DNA of 64,000 nt from an uncultured Anaerolineales bacterium (GCA_964539385.1 CAZIJC010000003.1:1503-65502), one strand, 5' to 3'. Shown: positions 12,302 through 50,780, counted from the first letter of the stretch. Translations and numbers: made by a program. Notes: generated from the letters alone by a model not told the origin.

Positions 12302-12343
12302 AAAAAAAGGGCCGGCCCCAGGGGTGGTGGCCTGGGGCCGGCG
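12302..12343 (-). terminator. intrinsic terminator (minus strand)
   Basis: GGGCCGGCCCCA / TGGGGCCGGC stem followed on minus strand by T7. Confidence 0.5.
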
Positions 12344-12619: not shown

Positions 12620-12889
12620 TCACGTGGTGACCACGTCGGCGTGGTCACGGATAAACCTGGCCGAGTCGCCCAGGTAGGCGGCCATGCCCTTGCCGTCGAG
12701 TGGGGTGAGGGCCTTGAGCACCGCTTTCCAGGGGCCGGCCAGGCCCTTGCGTTTGCCGACCGGGCGTACCGTGATGCCGCTGCCATTGACCTTGACCAGC
12801 ACGTTATACCGCTCGCCCTCAAGGTACATCGACAGGTGTAGCACGGCCGTGCCGTCTGGTTTGTTGGTGACCTCAATGGCCATGGTCAT
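12620..12889 (-). CDS. hypothetical phage protein
   Basis: 89-aa ORF; ATGA overlap with upstream gene stop. Confidence 0.45.
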   Translation of the reverse strand: MTMAIEVTNKPDGTAVLHLSMYLEGERYNVLVKVNGSGITVRPVGKRKGLAGPWKAVLKALTPLDGKGMAAYLGDSARFIRDHADVVTT

Positions 12890-13326
12890 TCCCCCCCGGC
12901 CGCGTGTGCATCCTGGGCCTTGATGATTTGCTGCACGTGCTCCCGCACGGTATCGACCTTGACCACGAAACCCTGCCCCGACTCCGGGGCCAGGCGCTCG
13001 GCCTTATACGTCCTGTAGGCGCACTCCGCGGCCTTACCGCAGCACGCCCAACATATCGACAAGGCCAAATCCGCCGGGCCACTGCCGGCGTAGCCGAATT
13101 GAAACCCGGTGGGACTGTGCCGCACCACGTGGGGCAGGGGGACCTTTTTGCCCACGGCGTCCATCACCTCGGCCTTGACCGTCCCGTCGGTCTGCCGCTG
13201 CACGATGATGAGATTGTTGCCTGCCAGGCCAAGGCCGGCCGCGCAGCACGTCGAGCAAAAACCCGTATCGCTGTATACCAGGCTCAAGCGCCGGGTGTGC
13301 TTTCTGCATAGGCTGCATTGTGCCAT
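12886..13326 (-). CDS. hypothetical phage protein with N-terminal Cys cluster
   Basis: CSLCRK...CSTCC zinc-ribbon-like N-terminus, conserved-looking HSPTGFQFGYAGSGPADLALSI core. Confidence 0.5.
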   Translation of the reverse strand: MAQCSLCRKHTRRLSLVYSDTGFCSTCCAAGLGLAGNNLIIVQRQTDGTVKAEVMDAVGKKVPLPHVVRHSPTGFQFGYAGSGPADLALSICWACCGKAAECAYRTYKAERLAPESGQGFVVKVDTVREHVQQIIKAQDAHAAGGE

Positions 13327-13422
13327 TGTGCACCACCTTTTTGTTGAGGGTTTCCCCTAGCACCGGCAGGGCGCCCATGACCGCCACGAGCCATCCCGCC
13401 GGCACCAGGTGAGAGGCTGTGT

Positions 13423-13833
13423 TTACGCTTCCGCTGTCGGCCCCGGCAAATGCTTGAAGTGTTCGACCACCGTTTCGACGTAATCCGCACACCGGGCGGC
13501 GCCGGCGATCTCATCGCCCCGCATTCGCAACGGTTGTGTGTGCCGCAGCAACACGGTGGCCTCTTGTAGTGCTTTGTCGATGCGTTCTAACTGTGCCATG
13601 ATGCGCTGGCCGCCCTTGATCCCCCTGGCCGCTGCTGTTTCGCGCTCGACAAAGGCAGACACGGCCGCCTCGGCGCCCCAGGGCGACGAATCGACCAGCG
13701 TGTGCGCGGGCACCGTCGATTCGGTGCCTGGCAGGAGTTGCGCATCATCCCGGTTTGCCCGCCATCCCTTGCCTTTCGCGTCCAGCGCGACGGTCCACTC
13801 TTGCCCCCACACTTTTATGCGGAGCGTGCTCAT
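13423..13833 (-). CDS. hypothetical phage protein
   Basis: Start at internal ATG 13833 directly preceded by the repeated leader element (RBS AAAGGTGG). Confidence 0.45.
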   Translation of the reverse strand: MSTLRIKVWGQEWTVALDAKGKGWRANRDDAQLLPGTESTVPAHTLVDSSPWGAEAAVSAFVERETAAARGIKGGQRIMAQLERIDKALQEATVLLRHTQPLRMRGDEIAGAARCADYVETVVEHFKHLPGPTAEA

Positions 13834-13906
13834 AAGACACCACCTTTCTACATGGCCACCATTGGCCGGCCGGCAGGTCCGGCCCCAGGGCCAGGCCCGC
13901 CGAGGC
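13834..13906 (-). repeat. repeated intergenic leader element R1, copy 1 (truncated)
   Basis: CCACCACCTTTC..GGCCACCATTGGCCGGCCGGCAGGTCCGG...CCAGGCCCGCC shared with copies at 14815 and 15273. Confidence 0.7.
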
Positions 13907-14814
13907 TCATTCCTCAAGGTTATCTACCAGGTCGGACACGGCCGCCCAATTGTCGGCCACGCCTTGCAGGTGCTTGCGGGCCTCGGCTTCGCGGTCGAGC
14001 CCTTGCTCCCATAGGGTCTTATCGCGCTCGGCCTTGACCGCTTTGGTGATAAGGTCATCGAGCGTGGCCGGCTCAAGGGCGTCCAACTCCCAGGAATCCT
14101 CACCGTACTCGACCACGTAGCCCTCATATCGAGAATCGGTCACCTTTGCGGGGTTGGGCGGCGGTTGGTACTCGTCAACCTGGTCCATGTTCAAGGCCAG
14201 GCGGGTGAGGCGCACCGGCTCATCGAGAAATAGGTCGAGCCGGTCGCGTATATCCCTGGTCATGTCGATGCCGCTTGGGTCATGGTCGCCCAGGTGCAGC
14301 AACAAGATGCCCTGCCCCCGGCCCTGGTGCTGCTGAAACCGCCGGATGGCGGCGTCCCACATTTCGCTTTGACTCATGTAGCCGCGGCACGCCATGTAAT
14401 CGACGCGGAGACGCTTGGCAATGGTGTCCAGCACGCCGGCCAGGGCTTCCTTTTCGATCCAGACCTCGTTGGCTGCGCGGCCCACAGGTCGAGCCGGAAC
14501 TGGTCGGCCACCGCCTCGATCATGCTTTCGGGCGACCGCCAGGTCGGATAGGCTTCAAGGTTGCGCGTGCGGTCCTCAATCGCATCCCAATCCACCAGGC
14601 CGGCCAGGCGGGCGTCGGACAGGATGGCCCCCAGGCGCTTGTAGTTCCGCTGCACGTTCGGCATGAGACCGCGGGCCACGAATTGGTAATAGAGTTGCCG
14701 CAAGGTGAGGCGGTAACCCTGCCCGCGGTATTCCTCGATGATGGCGTTTGCCCGATTGATGGTCTCGAGTGTCGCCGGCTTGAAATCCTTGTCCACGTAT
14801 CGGATGCGCGGCAT
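13907..14814 (-). pseudogene. Topo VI-A/Spo11-like (mini-A type) protein: 5Y-CAP (LRQLYYQF) + Toprim (GDHDPSG), split by a frameshift near 14470-14485
   Basis: N-part ORF 14374-14814 (real ATG at 14814) and C-part ORF 13907-14485 are consecutive halves in frames offset by one nucleotide; no slippery heptamer. Confidence 0.5.
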
Positions 14815-14903
14815 ATCCCACCACCTTTCCTGGCCACCATTGGCCTGCCGGCAGGTCTGGCCCCCACGGCCAGGCCCGCCGGCGGGCCAATGGCCCGCCT
14901 GAA
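14815..14903 (-). repeat. repeated intergenic leader element R1, copy 2
   Basis: Full copy including GGGCCAATGGCCCGCC inverted half. Confidence 0.7.
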
Positions 14904-15272
14904 TCATTCGCCCATGGCCGCCCGGTTGCCCGCCTCTTGCAGTATGGCCGCTTGGGTGATTTCTTCGCAGGTAAGAACGTAGTGCGGCGCCGGCCCCCAC
15001 ACCAGGTCACCCCAATAGAGCGCCTCATGCAGCCGGACCTCGGCTTTGCGCTGGCCCGTCGGCTCATAGACGTAGACCACCCGGTCACGCCTTGGTTCGA
15101 TGCCGGCGTCACGGATGGCCGCCAGCGCCTGCCAAAGCGCTTCTGTGAGTGACCGGCCTTCGCCCGGCTCGCCGTCGCCAAGCCACTGGCCATTGACCAC
15201 CTGGGCCAACCACCCGGCGGCCTGCATTGTGCCGTACATGCAGACCTCTGCAACCACCTTGGCCTTTCGCAT
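14904..15272 (-). CDS. hypothetical phage early protein (first gene of leftward operon)
   Basis: Internal ATG at 15272 preceded by R1 copy 3; 123 aa. Confidence 0.45.
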   Translation of the reverse strand: MRKAKVVAEVCMYGTMQAAGWLAQVVNGQWLGDGEPGEGRSLTEALWQALAAIRDAGIEPRRDRVVYVYEPTGQRKAEVRLHEALYWGDLVWGPAPHYVLTCEEITQAAILQEAGNRAAMGE

Positions 15273-15360
15273 AACCCACCACCTTTCCTGGCCACCATTG
15301 GCCGGCCGGCAGGTCCGGTGATCCCCAGGCCCGCCGGCGGGCCAATGCCCGCCTGCCTCT
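15273..15360 (-). repeat. repeated intergenic leader element R1, copy 3
   Basis: Near-identical to copy 2. Confidence 0.7.
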
Positions 15361-15459
15361 GCCGCATCGGTCGGGCGCCCCAAGGGCCGGGCCTACCGCC
15401 CTGCGCCGGTTGTCATTTACGCCCGACTATTCACTTGCCAAAGCACTACTGCATTATAC

Positions 15460-15511
15460 CCCATTTGGGGCATTTGTCAAGCGCCCGGCCAGAAAAAATG
15501 TCCCAAATGGG
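15460..15511. promoter_or_regulatory. 16-bp inverted repeat (candidate operator) in divergent early promoter region
   Basis: CCCATTTGGGGCATTT ... AAAATGTCCCAAATGGG, 15/16 complementary, 20-bp spacer; lies in the AT-richer 500-bp gap between leftward and rightward operons. Confidence 0.45.
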
Positions 15512-15873
15512 TTGTTTATTTTTGCCCTTTGCGGCGCGGAATCAGTCTTTTTGCGAGATTTCTTGCTTGACCGCAGAATAAGAACGCGGTAGGTGTCGTG
15601 TCGATGACGCGGATGGCCGAACCGGCGGCGTGACAAGGCCAACACGTGGTGCAGGACCCCAGGCCCTACCCTACGCCCACGCCACCCCCCGATGCTGCCT
15701 TGGCACAAGTCCTTAGTATACCTCTACTTAGCGTGTGCGGGTCCTTGGGAGGCTCTTTCGAGCAATCGGGTGCAGAGTACCCGCTAAAAAAGCGCACCAT
15801 TGTTTTAGTCGCTGCTGCGTCAATTCCTTTGCCCCCAGGTGAACGGCTATAGTTATCGAAACGAGGCAATGTC

Positions 15874-16557
15874 ATGGCCAATCGCAAGCGCTTCAAACCG
15901 CCACGCCCCACCGCCAGGCCGCCGCGGGCGCCCTACATTGAGGCCGGTATCCGGTGGATGGCCGTGCCCGTCGAAACCGTGCATCCGGACCCCGAAAACG
16001 CGCGGCACCATACGCCGGCCAATCTGGCCGCGATACGCGGCAGCCTCACCGGCGCCCGGCAGCAAACCCCCATTGTGGTTGACCGGGACGGGATGATTCT
16101 CAAGGGCAACGGCACCTGGCACGCGGCCAAGGCCCTGGGGTGGGATTACATCGCCGTAAGCCTGACCACTCTCGAGGGCGCCGATGCGCGGGCCTACAGC
16201 CTGGCCGACAATCGCACGGCCGAGTTGGCCGAGTGGGATGAGACGCGCTTGGCCGTGCAACTGGCCGAGTTGCGGGCCGAGGGCAGCATCGACCTGACCA
16301 CCCTGGGATGGTCCGACGAGGAAACCCAAGAGGTGCTCAACCTGGCCGCCGGCCTGGGGCATGATACCAACCGGGGACCCGATATGCTTATCGACCGGCG
16401 CGACGCCGGCCCCTTGGTCAAGGCGGTGTTTGCGCCGTCGGCCCTGGCCCTGGTCGAGCAAGCCCTGGGCATGACCGGCCTGGTTAACCGGGGCAAGGCC
16501 CTTGAGGCCATTGCCCGGTTTTACATCGAGGCGGTGACCGATGCCGGGACAGACTAA
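15874..16557 (+). CDS. ParB-like nuclease domain protein
   Basis: ParB N-domain motifs (ENARHHTP, KGNGTWHAAKALG). Confidence 0.75.
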   Translation: MANRKRFKPPRPTARPPRAPYIEAGIRWMAVPVETVHPDPENARHHTPANLAAIRGSLTGARQQTPIVVDRDGMILKGNGTWHAAKALGWDYIAVSLTTLEGADARAYSLADNRTAELAEWDETRLAVQLAELRAEGSIDLTTLGWSDEETQEVLNLAAGLGHDTNRGPDMLIDRRDAGPLVKAVFAPSALALVEQALGMTGLVNRGKALEAIARFYIEAVTDAGTD

Positions 16558-45316: not shown

Positions 45317-45517
45317 GGCGCCTTGGCCTTTCTGCACGCCCTGACGTGGCGCTCAAAGTTGCGCAATGCGTAGATAAGCATGAGTTGCCGCCTACCGGCC
45401 ACCTTCGGCCGGCCGTCCTTGCGCCGGCTGCCGCGCGGATGCTTCACCTGGTAGCGCCCCGGAAACTCTCGACCGCAAACCGGGCAGGTCAACGGCTCAT
45501 CGCGGGCGGTGCTCACG
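45313..45517 (-). CDS. small zinc-finger protein
   Basis: GTG start after AGGAAAGG (in R2 copy); CPVCG...H...C; ATGA overlap with rusA. Confidence 0.4.
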
Positions 45518-47107: not shown

Positions 47108-47325
47108 TCCTCGGCCCCTTCCGAAATCAGCCCCTCAACATCGGCCTCGTGCCCCGCGATTTGAGCAATCAGGTCGCGGCATTGGCAGGCGGCCTCGTCC
47201 ACGTCGATCTGGCCGTTGGCGGCCGCCAGGCTGATGGCCCACCCGGCCAGGCCGTTCGCGTGGTCCTCAAGCGTTCTTGCGAGCCTTGACCTTTCCGCCG
47301 CGTCTTGCCCGTTTGGGTTTCCCAT
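47104..47325 (-). CDS. hypothetical phage protein
   Basis: 73 aa, acidic. Confidence 0.35.
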   Translation of the reverse strand: MGNPNGQDAAERSRLARTLEDHANGLAGWAISLAAANGQIDVDEAACQCRDLIAQIAGHEADVEGLISEGAEE

Positions 47326-49291
47326 CGGTCTTGCCCTTTCGCTTGGCCTTGGTCCTGGCCGGCTTGGCCGGTTTTACCGGGACCGGCTTTTTCTCGAAAT
47401 CCGACTGCCTCGGCCGGGCCGGCAATTTGATGCCGAGCCGGTCGGCCAGGGCCATCTTGACCAGGCCGTGCATGTTTCCGACCAGGCGTTTGTAGCCTTT
47501 CTCATGGAGTAGGGCGGCCAGGCCGCCAAGGCCCTGTGCTCCGCAGGTCCCCACGGCCACCGCGTCGAGAAAGCCGAGGAACTTTCCAATGGTGCGCCTG
47601 ACTGTGCTGTCGGTGGTGGCCACGCCCCACAACTTGGCGCCCTGGGCGGTCTCGCGTGCCAGGTAGAGGGCGGCCAGGGTCATGGGGTCTCGCGGCAGTT
47701 TGGCCAGCACCGCTTTGGTGGCCTGCTCTTTCCACCGCAAATTGGCCATGTAGAACTTGCCGGCCGGCGTCTTTTCCCAGGCGCCCCCCCCGGCCTCGGT
47801 CTTGGCCTTCGCCTTGGCCGCCGGCTGCAACTGTCTCACCACCGGCCCGACCTTGACCCCGGCCGGCACGTGGACGGCCACGCCTTTGGCGGTCGGCTCG
47901 GCCTTGGCCGCCCGCGCCGCCTTGACCGCCGCCTCGACGGCCTGGTCGGCAAACGTGCTCTTGCGTTTGTAGCACTTGGGGTCAAGGCACTTGCCGCGGG
48001 CCAGGGTTTCGGTGTCCATGGTTGCAAAGAGGGCTGCCGCGTTCTCGGAGTTGTGCGGGCATTCGATGCAGGGCGGGCGGCCGGCAAAGGGTGCATCGAG
48101 GCGCCACCGCACGCCGTACAGGCTGCGGAGCATGTTGGCCACAAGGCGCCGGAGCCGGTCGATGGCCATGCCGCCGGTGCCGTCCTCACGCCTGGCCGCC
48201 GTCGTGGCCACGCTGCCTTGCTCGCGGGCGTCAACCAGTTTGGCGACCTCGTGGGCGTGGGCCAGCGGCAGCCGGCCGTCGATGACCAGGTTGGCCGCCT
48301 TGACGCCCAGGCGCATGAGCACGGTGCGGCCGCGCATCCACGCCACGGACTGGCCGAGCAAAGAGGCCACCTCGCGGATGGCTTCGCGCGGTATCTCGAC
48401 CGCGGCCGCGGCGGTGATCCGCCGGCCGAACTTGGCCTGGCCGGTGATGGCCTTGAGCATATTGCAGACGGCCAGCGCTTCCTCGACCGGGTTCAACTCG
48501 CCGCGGTGCAGATTCTCGATGGCCGCCAGTTGCGCTTGCCAGCCTTCCGAGCCGCCGTCAAAGACCACCGCCGGCACGGTCGTGAGGCCGGCCAGAGCGG
48601 CGGCCAGCACCCGGCGCCGGCCGTAGATGACCCGGTAAGGCGTCGGGTCACCCGCTGGCTTGGTGCGCATCAGGCCCACCGGCTCAAGCACGCCGACTTG
48701 GCGGATGCTCTCGGCCAGGGCCGTCAAGCCCTCGGTCTTGCCGGTCGGCTCAAGCCGGTGGTCCTGGGTGGGGCGTTCGATTTCTCCCAGGTCCACCAGC
48801 ATGAGACCCTCGCGGTGCAGCGTTTCGACGGCCGCCAGGACCGGGGCCGGCCGGAACTTGGGGACCCCCGCCGGCCGCCTGGCCCGAAACTTGGCCCGGT
48901 ACCTGTCGGGGTGCTTGGCCGAGCCGAACACCGTTGCCAATTCATCGAGGCCCCAGGCCAGCGCCTCTTGCTCCGTCTCGGCCGTCTCGGCGCGAATGAC
49001 GCCCGCCGCGCACGTGCTCCCGACGTCCGGGCCGGCGGCCTCGATACCCCAATGCCACCGGCCGGCCGGGGCCTCGGCCAGAAACACCTTGGCCACGACC
49101 TTGCCCCAGGACTTGGGCAGGGCGACCTTGACCGTCTTGAACTTGTCGAATACGCCGGCCGCGGTGAGGTGGTGTGCTTTCTGGCAGTCCGCGCACACCA
49201 CAAACCCGCTGTCGCGCTCTATCATTGCATGTATATCGCCGCATACCCGGCAGGCCGGACGCGGCGCCGCTGATGGTTTGGGCTTGCTCAT
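47267..49291 (-). CDS. ParB/Srx-domain DNA-binding protein with N-terminal zinc ribbon (674 aa)
   Basis: CRVCGD...CADC N-terminus; ParB N-domain (FRPAPVLAAVETLH...EPVGLMR...YRVIYGRRRVLAA); second CIECPH..C cluster; Lys-rich tail. Confidence 0.65.
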   Translation of the reverse strand: MSKPKPSAAPRPACRVCGDIHAMIERDSGFVVCADCQKAHHLTAAGVFDKFKTVKVALPKSWGKVVAKVFLAEAPAGRWHWGIEAAGPDVGSTCAAGVIRAETAETEQEALAWGLDELATVFGSAKHPDRYRAKFRARRPAGVPKFRPAPVLAAVETLHREGLMLVDLGEIERPTQDHRLEPTGKTEGLTALAESIRQVGVLEPVGLMRTKPAGDPTPYRVIYGRRRVLAAALAGLTTVPAVVFDGGSEGWQAQLAAIENLHRGELNPVEEALAVCNMLKAITGQAKFGRRITAAAAVEIPREAIREVASLLGQSVAWMRGRTVLMRLGVKAANLVIDGRLPLAHAHEVAKLVDAREQGSVATTAARREDGTGGMAIDRLRRLVANMLRSLYGVRWRLDAPFAGRPPCIECPHNSENAAALFATMDTETLARGKCLDPKCYKRKSTFADQAVEAAVKAARAAKAEPTAKGVAVHVPAGVKVGPVVRQLQPAAKAKAKTEAGGGAWEKTPAGKFYMANLRWKEQATKAVLAKLPRDPMTLAALYLARETAQGAKLWGVATTDSTVRRTIGKFLGFLDAVAVGTCGAQGLGGLAALLHEKGYKRLVGNMHGLVKMALADRLGIKLPARPRQSDFEKKPVPVKPAKPARTKAKRKGKTDGKPKRARRGGKVKARKNA

Positions 49292-49335: not shown

Positions 49336-49602
49336 CTATGCCTTTGGCTTGCTGGCCGGGATGACCGGCATGTCATAGCCGGCGCCGCGCAGCATGGCCA
49401 GTTGCTCTTTGGTGGCATCGACCACCCCCAGGTTGTCCTTGTACGCCTGGGACGGGGTAATCCACCGGCGGGCGTTGGCCTGGTCGAAATCCACCACCAG
49501 CATGGCCCGGCCGCCGCCGGCCGCCGGCACCACCTCGGCCGATTCGATGACCTCACCTGTCTCAAACAGTACCGCCTTGGGGTCCTGCGCCATCAGTTTC
49601 AT
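49336..49602 (-). CDS. hypothetical phage protein
   Basis: Internal ATG 49602 overlaps Dam stop (ATGA). Confidence 0.4.
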   Translation of the reverse strand: MKLMAQDPKAVLFETGEVIESAEVVPAAGGGRAMLVVDFDQANARRWITPSQAYKDNLGVVDATKEQLAMLRGAGYDMPVIPASKPKA

Positions 49603-50780
49603 GCCTCGCCCTTTCCGGAATCGCCGGCGGCATTGCCGGCGGGTGTATCTTCGGTGGGAAACAAGGGGCCGGCCGTGGCCGACAGGCAATGCGGTGAAAA
49701 GTAGATGCGTTCCCGGTTACGATTGGTCCGGGCGGCCCCGTCGCCCTTGCAGCCGTATCCCCCTTGTGCCGTCCACTTGTACAGCGTCCAATTCGTCGGC
49801 ATCGCGTGCTCTCCCTCGTAGCCGCAAAGCGCAATCCGCATCCGGGGGTCGTCGCCGTGCTCGACCGCCCACGCGCGCGCGGCATCGGCGAGGGCCTGGT
49901 CGTCGCATCGGTACAGGCTGGTGCGTCGTGTTGCCTCTTTGCCATAGGGCGGGTCCAAAAACACCCCGGTCAACCCGGTGCACGTGGTCTGCGCCCGGCC
50001 GAGAATCGAATCCCATTGACCGCAATGCACCCGGACCATGCGCAGCCGGTCACAGAGCGTCCCCATCCATGCACACAAGGCAGCCAGGTGGCCCACCGAT
50101 GCCCCCAGGCCCGCGGGCGCGCCGGCTCCGAGTCCGCGCCGGCGGTTGACCCCCCGGCCACCGTCCCCGCAGTGCAGGCGCTGCCGATTGACCCCGCGGT
50201 GTGCCCGGCCGGTCTGCGGTACCTGTCTGCTGACACCGCGGCCGCCCCGCGTTTTCTTTTTCGTGACACCTTTCGGGCCCTTGCCTGTCTTGCGAAGCGT
50301 GGACGTGCCCCCCTCATTCACCACGTGCCACGGCCCCACCCCGGAGCAAAAGCCGGAACCAATCCAACAACTCATACCCCAGGCCCAGGCACCGGCTATC
50401 TCCGCATCGTAATAGGTACGGTCTGCCTCGATGCGCGCCTGCAATCCGCCAGAGACCTCGACCAACCACAAATGAATGGCGGTGAGGTCGGCGGTGCTTG
50501 GCGGCCGGTCGGCCGCCGCGGCCACTCCGTCCGGATCCGCCCGGACGGCCCGCCAGAAATTGACCACCAGGCCATCGAGGTCGTTCACGGTCTCGATGCC
50601 CGGTGCACCGGGCCGGGCGAGCAACACCGCGCCGGATCCAAAGAACGGTTCGACGTAATTGGGCACGTCGCCGAAGCGCCGCCAGACCTCGGCCGCCGCC
50701 CTGCGCTTGCTCCCGAAATACGGGAAGGGCGCTTGCAGGGCAGGGGGCGCCGCGGGCCGCTTGTGTGAACGCTTGGCCAT
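49599..50780 (-). CDS. DNA adenine methyltransferase (Dam/D12 class) with large internal insertion
   Basis: FPYFGSKRR...EPFFGSGAV (motif I) and VFLDPPY (motif IV); roughly 150-aa Gly/Arg-rich insertion between them. Confidence 0.75.
   Translation of the reverse strand: MAKRSHKRPAAPPALQAPFPYFGSKRRAAAEVWRRFGDVPNYVEPFFGSGAVLLARPGAPGIETVNDLDGLVVNFWRAVRADPDGVAAAADRPPSTADLTAIHLWLVEVSGGLQARIEADRTYYDAEIAGAWAWGMSCWIGSGFCSGVGPWHVVNEGGTSTLRKTGKGPKGVTKKKTRGGRGVSRQVPQTGRAHRGVNRQRLHCGDGGRGVNRRRGLGAGAPAGLGASVGHLAALCAWMGTLCDRLRMVRVHCGQWDSILGRAQTTCTGLTGVFLDPPYGKEATRRTSLYRCDDQALADAARAWAVEHGDDPRMRIALCGYEGEHAMPTNWTLYKWTAQGGYGCKGDGAARTNRNRERIYFSPHCLSATAGPLFPTEDTPAGNAAGDSGKGEA

Follow-up and report, generated by a model that had tools for sequence, protein, structure and literature searches.

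A prophage in an uncultured Anaerolineales bacterium carries a structured intergenic element that is repeated along a leftward operon, each time directly before a start codon. We analysed it in a 64,000-nucleotide stretch of the genome (GCA_964539385.1 CAZIJC010000003.1:1503-65502), hereafter the window; coordinates are positions in this 64-kb window, and the elements are read on the minus strand, that is, in mRNA sense. An earlier inspection of the DNA without database searches (the sequence-only reading) had described three copies, each preceding a start codon. All three were recovered, and a probable, degenerate fourth copy can be added:

15270-15360, minus strand: copy 3, in the 5' leader of gene A; Shine-Dalgarno (SD) sequence 15286-15277, ATG 15272-15270
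14812-14906, minus strand: copy 2, in the gap between gene A and a topoisomerase-like gene; SD 14828-14819, ATG 14814-14812
13831-13909, minus strand: copy 1, 5'-truncated, in the gap between the topoisomerase-like gene and gene C; SD 13847-13838, ATG 13833-13831
13324-13425, minus strand: probable degenerate copy 4, preceding a DUF6166 gene; SD 13340-13331, ATG 13326-13324

Each copy fills an intergenic gap, beginning 0-3 nt past the upstream stop codon, except for copy 3, which instead lies in the 5' leader; all of them end in AAAGGTGGTG-N4-ATG. This 10-mer, AAAGGTGGTG, occurs five times in the window (0.07 expected), and four of these five occurrences stand exactly 4 nt before the four consecutive start codons (15272, 14814, 13833 and 13326 for copies 3, 2, 1 and 4). 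A repeat finder grouped copies 1-3 into a three-member family, and the direct repeats around gene A are 94-96% identical. Within the 3' arm, the 24-mer CCTGCCGGCCGGCCAATGGTGGCC has three matches in the window at no more than three mismatches, against 0.00 expected. An nhmmer profile of copies 1-3 recovered copies 3, 2 and 1 with E-values of 2e-24, 4e-25 and 5e-19, which is self-recovery by construction, the profile having been made from the same three copies; apart from palindromic reverse-strand self-matches, it found nothing further in the window better than E 0.08. The repeated structured element is genuine and statistically exceptional. Its copies are confined to 13324-15360, with three or four in one operon and none in the host flanks of the window.

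Copy 4 has the same ordered words as the other copies (CGGCGGG..CCTGCCGG..AAAGGTGGTG-N4-ATG) placed around a hairpin, and MAFFT could not align it in register with them. A covariance model built from copies 1-3 only ranked it second among new locations in the window (15.8 bits, E 0.07); the slightly better match, at 45379-45430, lies within a coding region and was discarded as noise, and the scan gave no additional copies. We call copy 4 a probable rather than proven genuine fourth copy because this covariance-model support is marginal.

As far as transcription can be inferred from the sequence, the elements belong to a single transcription unit of about 3.1 kb with six genes:

15453-15480, minus strand: operon promoter, sigma-70, TTGACA-16 nt-TATAAT, 12/12 match to consensus
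14904-15272, minus strand: gene A, 122 aa, an ORFan
13907-14814, minus strand: topoisomerase-like gene (phrog_6247, E 8e-110), with a frameshift near 14470-14485
13423-13833, minus strand: gene C, 136 aa, without family match
12886-13326, minus strand: DUF6166 gene, named for its DUF6166 match
12889-12620, minus strand: 89-aa gene, tightly packed after the DUF6166 gene, without element
12607-12389, minus strand: 72-aa gene, tightly packed after the 89-aa gene, without element
12311-12342, minus strand: intrinsic terminator at the operon end, a 12-bp stem with 11 G-C pairs, then CCTTTTTTTG

The promoter (15480-15453) and the terminator (12342-12311) are on the same strand and bracket all four copies, with no promoter-like or terminator-like site between them. 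The transcription start would be near 15446. Between 11000 and 17500 the only promoter-like sites are 15480-15453 and 15604-15575, neither of which is inside an element. The module is found at all four operon junctions longer than 70 nt and is missing from the two short ones (a 4-nt overlap and a 12-nt gap).

Two 10-bp palindromes of the form CCCAWWTGGG lie at the promoter, CCCATTTGGG at 15460-15469 (between the -35 and -10 hexamers) and CCCAAATGGG at 15502-15511. The window has no other such sites. The two bear no relation to the repeated element and are likely to be repressor operators. The topoisomerase-like gene is split into two overlapping frames, and a -1 shift immediately ahead of ..NEVWIEKEAL.. 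would be needed to restore the protein of about 302 aa known from intact homologues. Twelve independent metagenome contigs have the same break, with no slippery heptamer seen there, and it appears to be a fixed pseudogene and not an assembly error. Searches of the operon proteins against Pfam, PHROGs, NCBIfam and PDB sequences returned only DUF6166, topoisomerase-like and ParB-like matches; gene C and four further proteins of the operon region belong to no Pfam, PHROGs or NCBIfam family.

In mRNA sense, the copies are predicted to fold into the following hairpins:

15353-15290, minus strand: copy 3 hairpin, 25 bp, -52.7 kcal/mol
14899-14832, minus strand: copy 2 hairpin, 28 bp with two 1x1 C·A mismatches, -61.8 kcal/mol
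13906-13869, minus strand: copy 1 upper hairpin, 15 bp, accompanied by a second small hairpin at 13867-13854; minimum free energy (MFE) -34.9 kcal/mol
13412-13353, minus strand: copy 4 hairpin, 24 bp including 6 G·U, -40.6 kcal/mol

The inverted pair that the sequence-only reading had expected to form a long stem-loop is real; in copy 2 its 26-nt arms are 88% complementary and separated by 5 nt, and copy 1 does lack the distal 5' arm, as had been claimed. Among 12,784 80-nt segments covering both strands (mean -28.5, standard deviation 6.8), copy 2 is the most stable and copy 3 the sixth. Comparison with shuffled sequences gave z-scores of -5.0 for copy 2, -3.0 for copy 3, -1.4 for copy 1 and -1.7 for copy 4. 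The antisense strands have MFEs of -44.5 (copy 3), -60.8 (copy 2), -32.3 (copy 1) and -29.1 kcal/mol (copy 4); the mRNA sense is favoured in all four, by 8.2, 1.0, 2.6 and 11.5 kcal/mol, respectively, and G·U pairs are commoner in the sense folds.

All four copies share the core stem CGGCGGG/CCUGCCG, which includes a G·U pair. A U-A pair of copy 2 is changed to U·G in copies 1 and 3, which remains paired in the mRNA and is an A·C mismatch on the other strand. In copy 4, the basal and apical helices around this core are made of unrelated sequence with six G·U pairs; this retention of the helix with a different sequence is the closest available thing to covariation. Copies 2 and 3 also contain a perfect 16-bp palindrome, GGCCCGCCGGCGGGCC, of which copies 1 and 4 keep a half-site. 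An A-A'-A arrangement is present in copies 2 and 3, where it allows an alternative fold of three hairpins (-52.3 and -45.9 kcal/mol) that is 7-9.5 kcal/mol above the long hairpin and is predicted to form first during transcription. These two copies would then need to rearrange from three small hairpins into the single long hairpin (-61.8 and -52.7 kcal/mol), while copy 1 is predicted to be fixed in the multi-hairpin form.

About 10-20 nt downstream of the hairpin follows an extended SD, AAGGUGGUG, which matches the canonical AAGGAGGUG at 8/9 positions, and then the AUG. The sequence-only reading had listed translational control among the possible functions. Control through masking or insulation of the ribosome site by the fold was rejected at the level of the model; the region from SD to AUG has a predicted unpaired probability of 0.46-0.54, and it stays at about 0.5 in controls with shuffled hairpins. 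As a separate observation, both upstream genes end in GAATGA (14903-14906 and 13906-13909, minus strand), such that an ATG overlaps each stop codon. The one in copy 2 is in frame with the topoisomerase-like start and would add a 31-aa extension. The one in copy 1 opens a 20-codon open reading frame (ORF; MSLGGPGPGAGPAGRPMVAM followed by a stop), which runs through the hairpin and ends 10 nt before the ATG of gene C. These start codons may allow translational coupling through the hairpins.

We searched for the element elsewhere, and it is a new sequence family without database relatives. The whole window has no match in Rfam 15 at gathering thresholds, and a permissive Rfam scan of 13700-15600 gave sub-threshold CRISPR-DR and miRNA matches that we regard as palindrome noise. 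DNA pattern scans (IMG/VR, 185,579 species genomes and JGI metagenomes) returned no true match; the matches in, or resembling, coding sequence were judged to be chance, with ORF inspection confirming this only for L035. BLASTN of copy 2 against GenBank phages and plasmids found nothing at E <0.2. Gene A matches itself only among 5.8 billion proteins, and in IMG/VR none of gene A, gene C and the DUF6166 protein has a close relative. The closest homologues of the topoisomerase-like protein (75%, 71% and 57% identity) are encoded in other contexts from which the element is absent. The phage lineage is very isolated; the best match of its large terminase (TerL) among 5.8 billion proteins is 42% identical and has no comparable operon among its neighbours in the DNA retrieved. 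The 12 contigs that carry the region are 100% identical throughout. With identical source contigs and no relatives of the element, there is no phylogenetic covariation and there are no cassette variants to compare.

One hairpin found outside this lineage deserves mention. In a Magnetospirillum sp. UT-4 prophage, GGCCGGCGGGCCTGGC..GGCCAGACCTGCCGGCCAATGG (L022 2572-2618, equal to L024 7664-7710) lies between convergent genes. It has both arms of the element's upper stem, which it reproduces down to the positions of the G·U and the C·A. The two prophages otherwise share only distant GpA terminase/TerL (29% identity) and ParB-like genes (38%). This hairpin could be a distant relative or a case of convergence.

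To judge from its layout and predicted folds, the element most likely does what intercistronic processing or stabiliser hairpins are known to do. More specifically, the reading that we favour, tentatively and with less than even confidence, is that the elements are intercistronic mRNA hairpins serving as RNase III-type processing sites and/or 3'-end protectors, each equipped with its own strong ribosome site. At the RNA level, the four elements would be modules of one early-type transcript some 3.1 kb long, each laid out in the order stop codon, long imperfect helix of about two or more turns, short single-stranded spacer, strong ribosome site and start codon. A double-strand-specific endonuclease, the host RNase III, would cut at the hairpins, and/or the hairpins would stop 3'-to-5' exonucleases, and the polycistronic RNA would be cut into, or decay to, defined segments. 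Each upstream segment would finish in a protective hairpin, and each downstream one would start with a short leader and its own strong ribosome site, leaving its cistron to be translated independently.

We rate RNA processing or 3'-end protection as most likely because the module layout is that of the early operon of phage T7. The T7 RNase III signals are R0.3, R0.5, R1, R1.1 and R1.3, and the transcript that carries them is made by the host RNA polymerase. This early precursor is about 7000 nt long with five RNase III signals, and irregularities in the helices limit cleavage to one strand, leaving stabilising 3' hairpins (PMC3867540). In both systems, mutually similar imperfect hairpins lie in the leader and between the cistrons of a single polycistronic transcript with a terminator at its end, and the ribosome site of the next gene is just 3' of the hairpin. 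The T7 helices extend over about two turns with internal mismatches; here, the predicted helices of copies 2-4 are of that order, with 1x1 mismatches or small loops, and that of copy 1 has only 15 bp. There are also clear differences. The two sets of hairpins have no sequence similarity, and the present stems have a much higher GC content and a more regular form, with 1x1 mismatches in place of large internal loops. Here the ribosome site belongs to the repeated unit, and a temperate prophage is being compared with a lytic phage. The hairpins described here are candidate cleavage sites, proposed from the sequence.

Stabilisation offers a second precedent. Intercistronic hairpins just 3' of a stop codon can shield the upstream mRNA from 3' exonucleases, as in the malE-malF REP and in Rhodobacter puf, and the present elements likewise are stable intercistronic hairpins immediately 3' of a stop codon. 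REPs differ in being dispersed over the host chromosome in hundreds of copies, whereas neither the host flanks nor any of the databases contain this element, and in that the present element includes the downstream ribosome site. The lack of dispersed copies likewise argues against a MITE.

Several features support RNA processing: the single orientation, the greater stability of the sense strand, the helices of 24-28 bp with small mismatches and the presence of the module at every long junction. Also in its favour are the bracketing of all four copies by one promoter and one terminator, the exceptional stability of copies 2 and 3, the U·G that replaces U-A in copies 1 and 3, the helices that copy 4 builds from other sequence, and the fixed spacing of AAAGGTGGTG from the four start codons. 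Helices of 24-28 bp with 1x1 mismatches, as predicted for copies 2-4, also fit the RNase III substrate of about 22 bp, or two turns. RNA processing had been one entry in the list of functions given by the sequence-only reading, and by orientation, sense stability, helix length and position it is the entry that fits best; the other options on that list fared worse, as set out below and, for the ribosome site, above.

A number of observations weigh against RNA processing or 3'-end protection. The 15-bp helix of copy 1 is shorter than a classical RNase III substrate, the gap between sense and antisense stability is only 1 kcal/mol in copy 2, and copy 4 is statistically marginal (E 0.07). Comparison of the paralogous copies (three or four) revealed no clean double compensatory change within aligned columns, and phylogenetic covariation is lacking because no homologous element was found. 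The strong conservation of the core-stem sequence could just as well be due to a recent duplication or to protein recognition, and the substrate rule of about 22 bp may not be that of the host RNase III.

The alternative that survives best, although we consider it rather unlikely, is that the elements are recombination cassettes: duplicated linkers of hairpin plus ribosome site, acting as direct repeats of 75-95 bp for the gain, loss and shuffling of genes, with any RNA role secondary. The near-identical repeats (94-96%) flank the ORFan gene A, and repeats also flank the topoisomerase-like gene, which is widespread in unrelated phages and whose closest relatives (75% and 71% identity) sit in different, tightly packed contexts without the element. 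A precedent exists in the PeSL cassettes of T4-type phages, conserved intergenic units about 100 bp long that stand on either side of ORFans and form mini-circles by recombination (PMC2839356). Like PeSLs, the present elements are conserved composite stem-loop cassettes of roughly that length, placed in intergenic positions among small, often ORFan, early genes, reaching to the Shine-Dalgarno sequence and ATG, and plausible as substrates for homologous recombination. Unlike PeSLs, whose definition requires both a sigma-70-like promoter and a terminator stem-loop, they lack promoter-like hexamers and a U-tract, and no variant genomes with signs of shuffling were found; in all 12 independent contigs, 100% identical as they are, the cassette is neither lost nor rearranged. 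Recombination alone also leaves unexplained the strand asymmetry of the fold and the helix of copy 4, which is built from different sequence.

The recombination-cassette explanation is compatible with RNA processing, and the two can be joined in a single scheme that we regard as doubtful. Here the elements would be promoter-less linkers with a double role, segmenting and insulating cistrons at the RNA level and providing portable homology at the DNA level for the capture or swapping of single genes behind one strong promoter. The genes swapped here would be the ORFan gene A and the topoisomerase-like gene, which travels widely, and the GC-rich prophage would hold an integrase-free, integron-like arrangement that is analogous to, but distinct from, that of the T4 PeSLs. 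As for integrons themselves, attC sites were tried and rejected; the R''/R' core sites (RYYYAAC ... GTTRRRY) are at no copy's ends in either orientation. Neither the Pfam matches of neighbouring genes nor the scanned proteins, which cover part of the ORFs of the window, contained an integrase domain.

It is improbable that the elements act as binding sites for a protein on duplex DNA, where a repressor or the neighbouring ParB-like protein would sit on the palindrome and block elongation or keep the operon silent in the lysogen, as happens at stoperators, phiC31 CIRs or parS. Some features would suit this idea, namely the perfect 16-bp palindrome of copies 2 and 3, a core that is conserved in sequence and not in pairing alone, and a ParB-like gene that begins 400 bp away. 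The copies also share one orientation relative to transcription and lie in short intergenic gaps, as the repeated stoperators of mycobacteriophages do (PMC9283540). Those, however, are 13-nt asymmetric DNA sites, present more than 20 times per genome and identical to the promoter operator, as opposed to four hairpin elements of 60-90 nt in one operon with no promoter counterpart. The helix, at 60-70 nt, is far above operator length, copies 1 and 4 have a half-site only, and neither the G·U pairs nor the sense-strand bias would matter for binding to duplex DNA. The suggestion of operator sites in the sequence-only reading is not supported either: no sub-motif of the element is found at the promoter, which has the different CCCAWWTGGG palindromes, and the perfect palindrome is confined to copies 2 and 3. 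An operator shared with the promoter was likewise rejected, as only isolated 8-10-mers are common to the elements and 15361-15880; the longest shared word, CCCCAGGCCC at 15657, is in copy 3 only and falls well outside the -35/-10 of the main promoter.

Equally improbable, in our estimate, are partial transcription attenuators that lack a U-tract and would create a descending gradient of expression along the operon. In favour are the high stability of the GC-rich hairpins and their place between genes, and PeSL stem-loops do act as terminators (PMC2839356). Against this, no T-run follows any copy, and termination at copy 3, ahead of the first gene, would hold back expression of the entire operon. 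The terminator at the operon end is a canonical hairpin with a T-run (T7, a run of T residues), and therefore the host polymerase uses classical signals. Ordinary intrinsic terminators were rejected outright; there is no U-tract, the 3' flanks on the mRNA strand being AGGAAAGG, AUGUAGAAAGG or GGGAAACCC, and the terminator scan is blank at the elements.

Slightly less probable again are RNA binding sites for a regulator encoded by the phage, whether a protein of the RegA or coat-protein type that represses or activates translation or a put/nut-like modifier of RNA polymerase. The conserved core stem beside each ribosome site, in which copies 1-3 share an invariant G·U and a C·A mismatch, could serve as such a site, as could the three-hairpin fold of copies 2 and 3, which lies 7-9.5 kcal/mol above the MFE and would be the first to form. 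Yet the operon proteins match no RNA-binding or antiterminator family, and the predicted fold leaves the ribosome site unoccluded. The put/nut-like antitermination raised by the sequence-only reading does not agree with the arrangement either: HK022 put and lambda nut sites occur once per early operon, upstream of the terminators that are overridden, while here there are four copies and no internal terminators.

Very improbable, finally, is that the element is coding sequence, giving three proteins a shared N-terminal peptide (..TCRPANGGQERWW.M..). Duplicated in-frame coding sequence was the outcome that the sequence-only reading named as fatal to its proposal, and it is largely excluded, despite the fact that copies 1-3 are open in the frame of the downstream ATG. 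An upstream in-frame start is available in each of copies 3, 2 and 1 (TTG 15383, ATG 14906 and TTG 13917), indel lengths beyond the loop on its 3' side are divisible by 3, and some gene callers pick the 177-aa long form. On the other hand, intact topoisomerase-like homologues are 300-305 aa long and align from the Met at 14814, every ATG is preceded by a strong SD 4 nt away, the frame of the conserved 5' arm differs between copies (RRAWPWG in copy 1, AGGPG in copies 2 and 3), and in copy 4 an in-frame TAG precedes the ATG by 33 nt. CRISPR repeats can be dismissed in a sentence; the weak CRISPR-DR matches are palindrome noise, and the copies are spaced 458-978 nt apart, so this is not a CRISPR.

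The operon adjoins a lambda-like packaging and head module (GpA terminase, portal), with host genes to the left (S21, ABC transporter); this module bordered by host genes identifies the region as a prophage, which spans the window from about 11400 to 45000 or beyond. The window has no tRNA gene, and no integrase was seen among the proteins scanned. Within this setting it is plausible that the leftward unit serves as an early or accessory operon, where "early" is our inference. Two separate proteins with a ParB N-terminal domain are encoded in the window. One (15874-16557, plus strand) opens the rightward operon that adjoins the element-bearing operon; the other (47267-49291, minus strand) is a 674-aa protein whose gene adjoins a D12-class adenine methyltransferase (49599-50780).

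Whether RNA processing or gene shuffling is correct, the element would be a lineage-specific case of known principles and not a new principle. Should gene shuffling be true, the PeSL idea would be extended beyond T4-type phages. If the hairpins instead process or stabilise the transcript, this prophage would be a natural GC-rich counterpart of the T7 early-operon design, in which one promoter is combined with post-transcriptional segmentation, and the compact, reusable unit of hairpin and strong ribosome site could find use in insulating operons of high-GC hosts. The T7-type design would then also be shown to exist in temperate phages of uncultivated bacteria.

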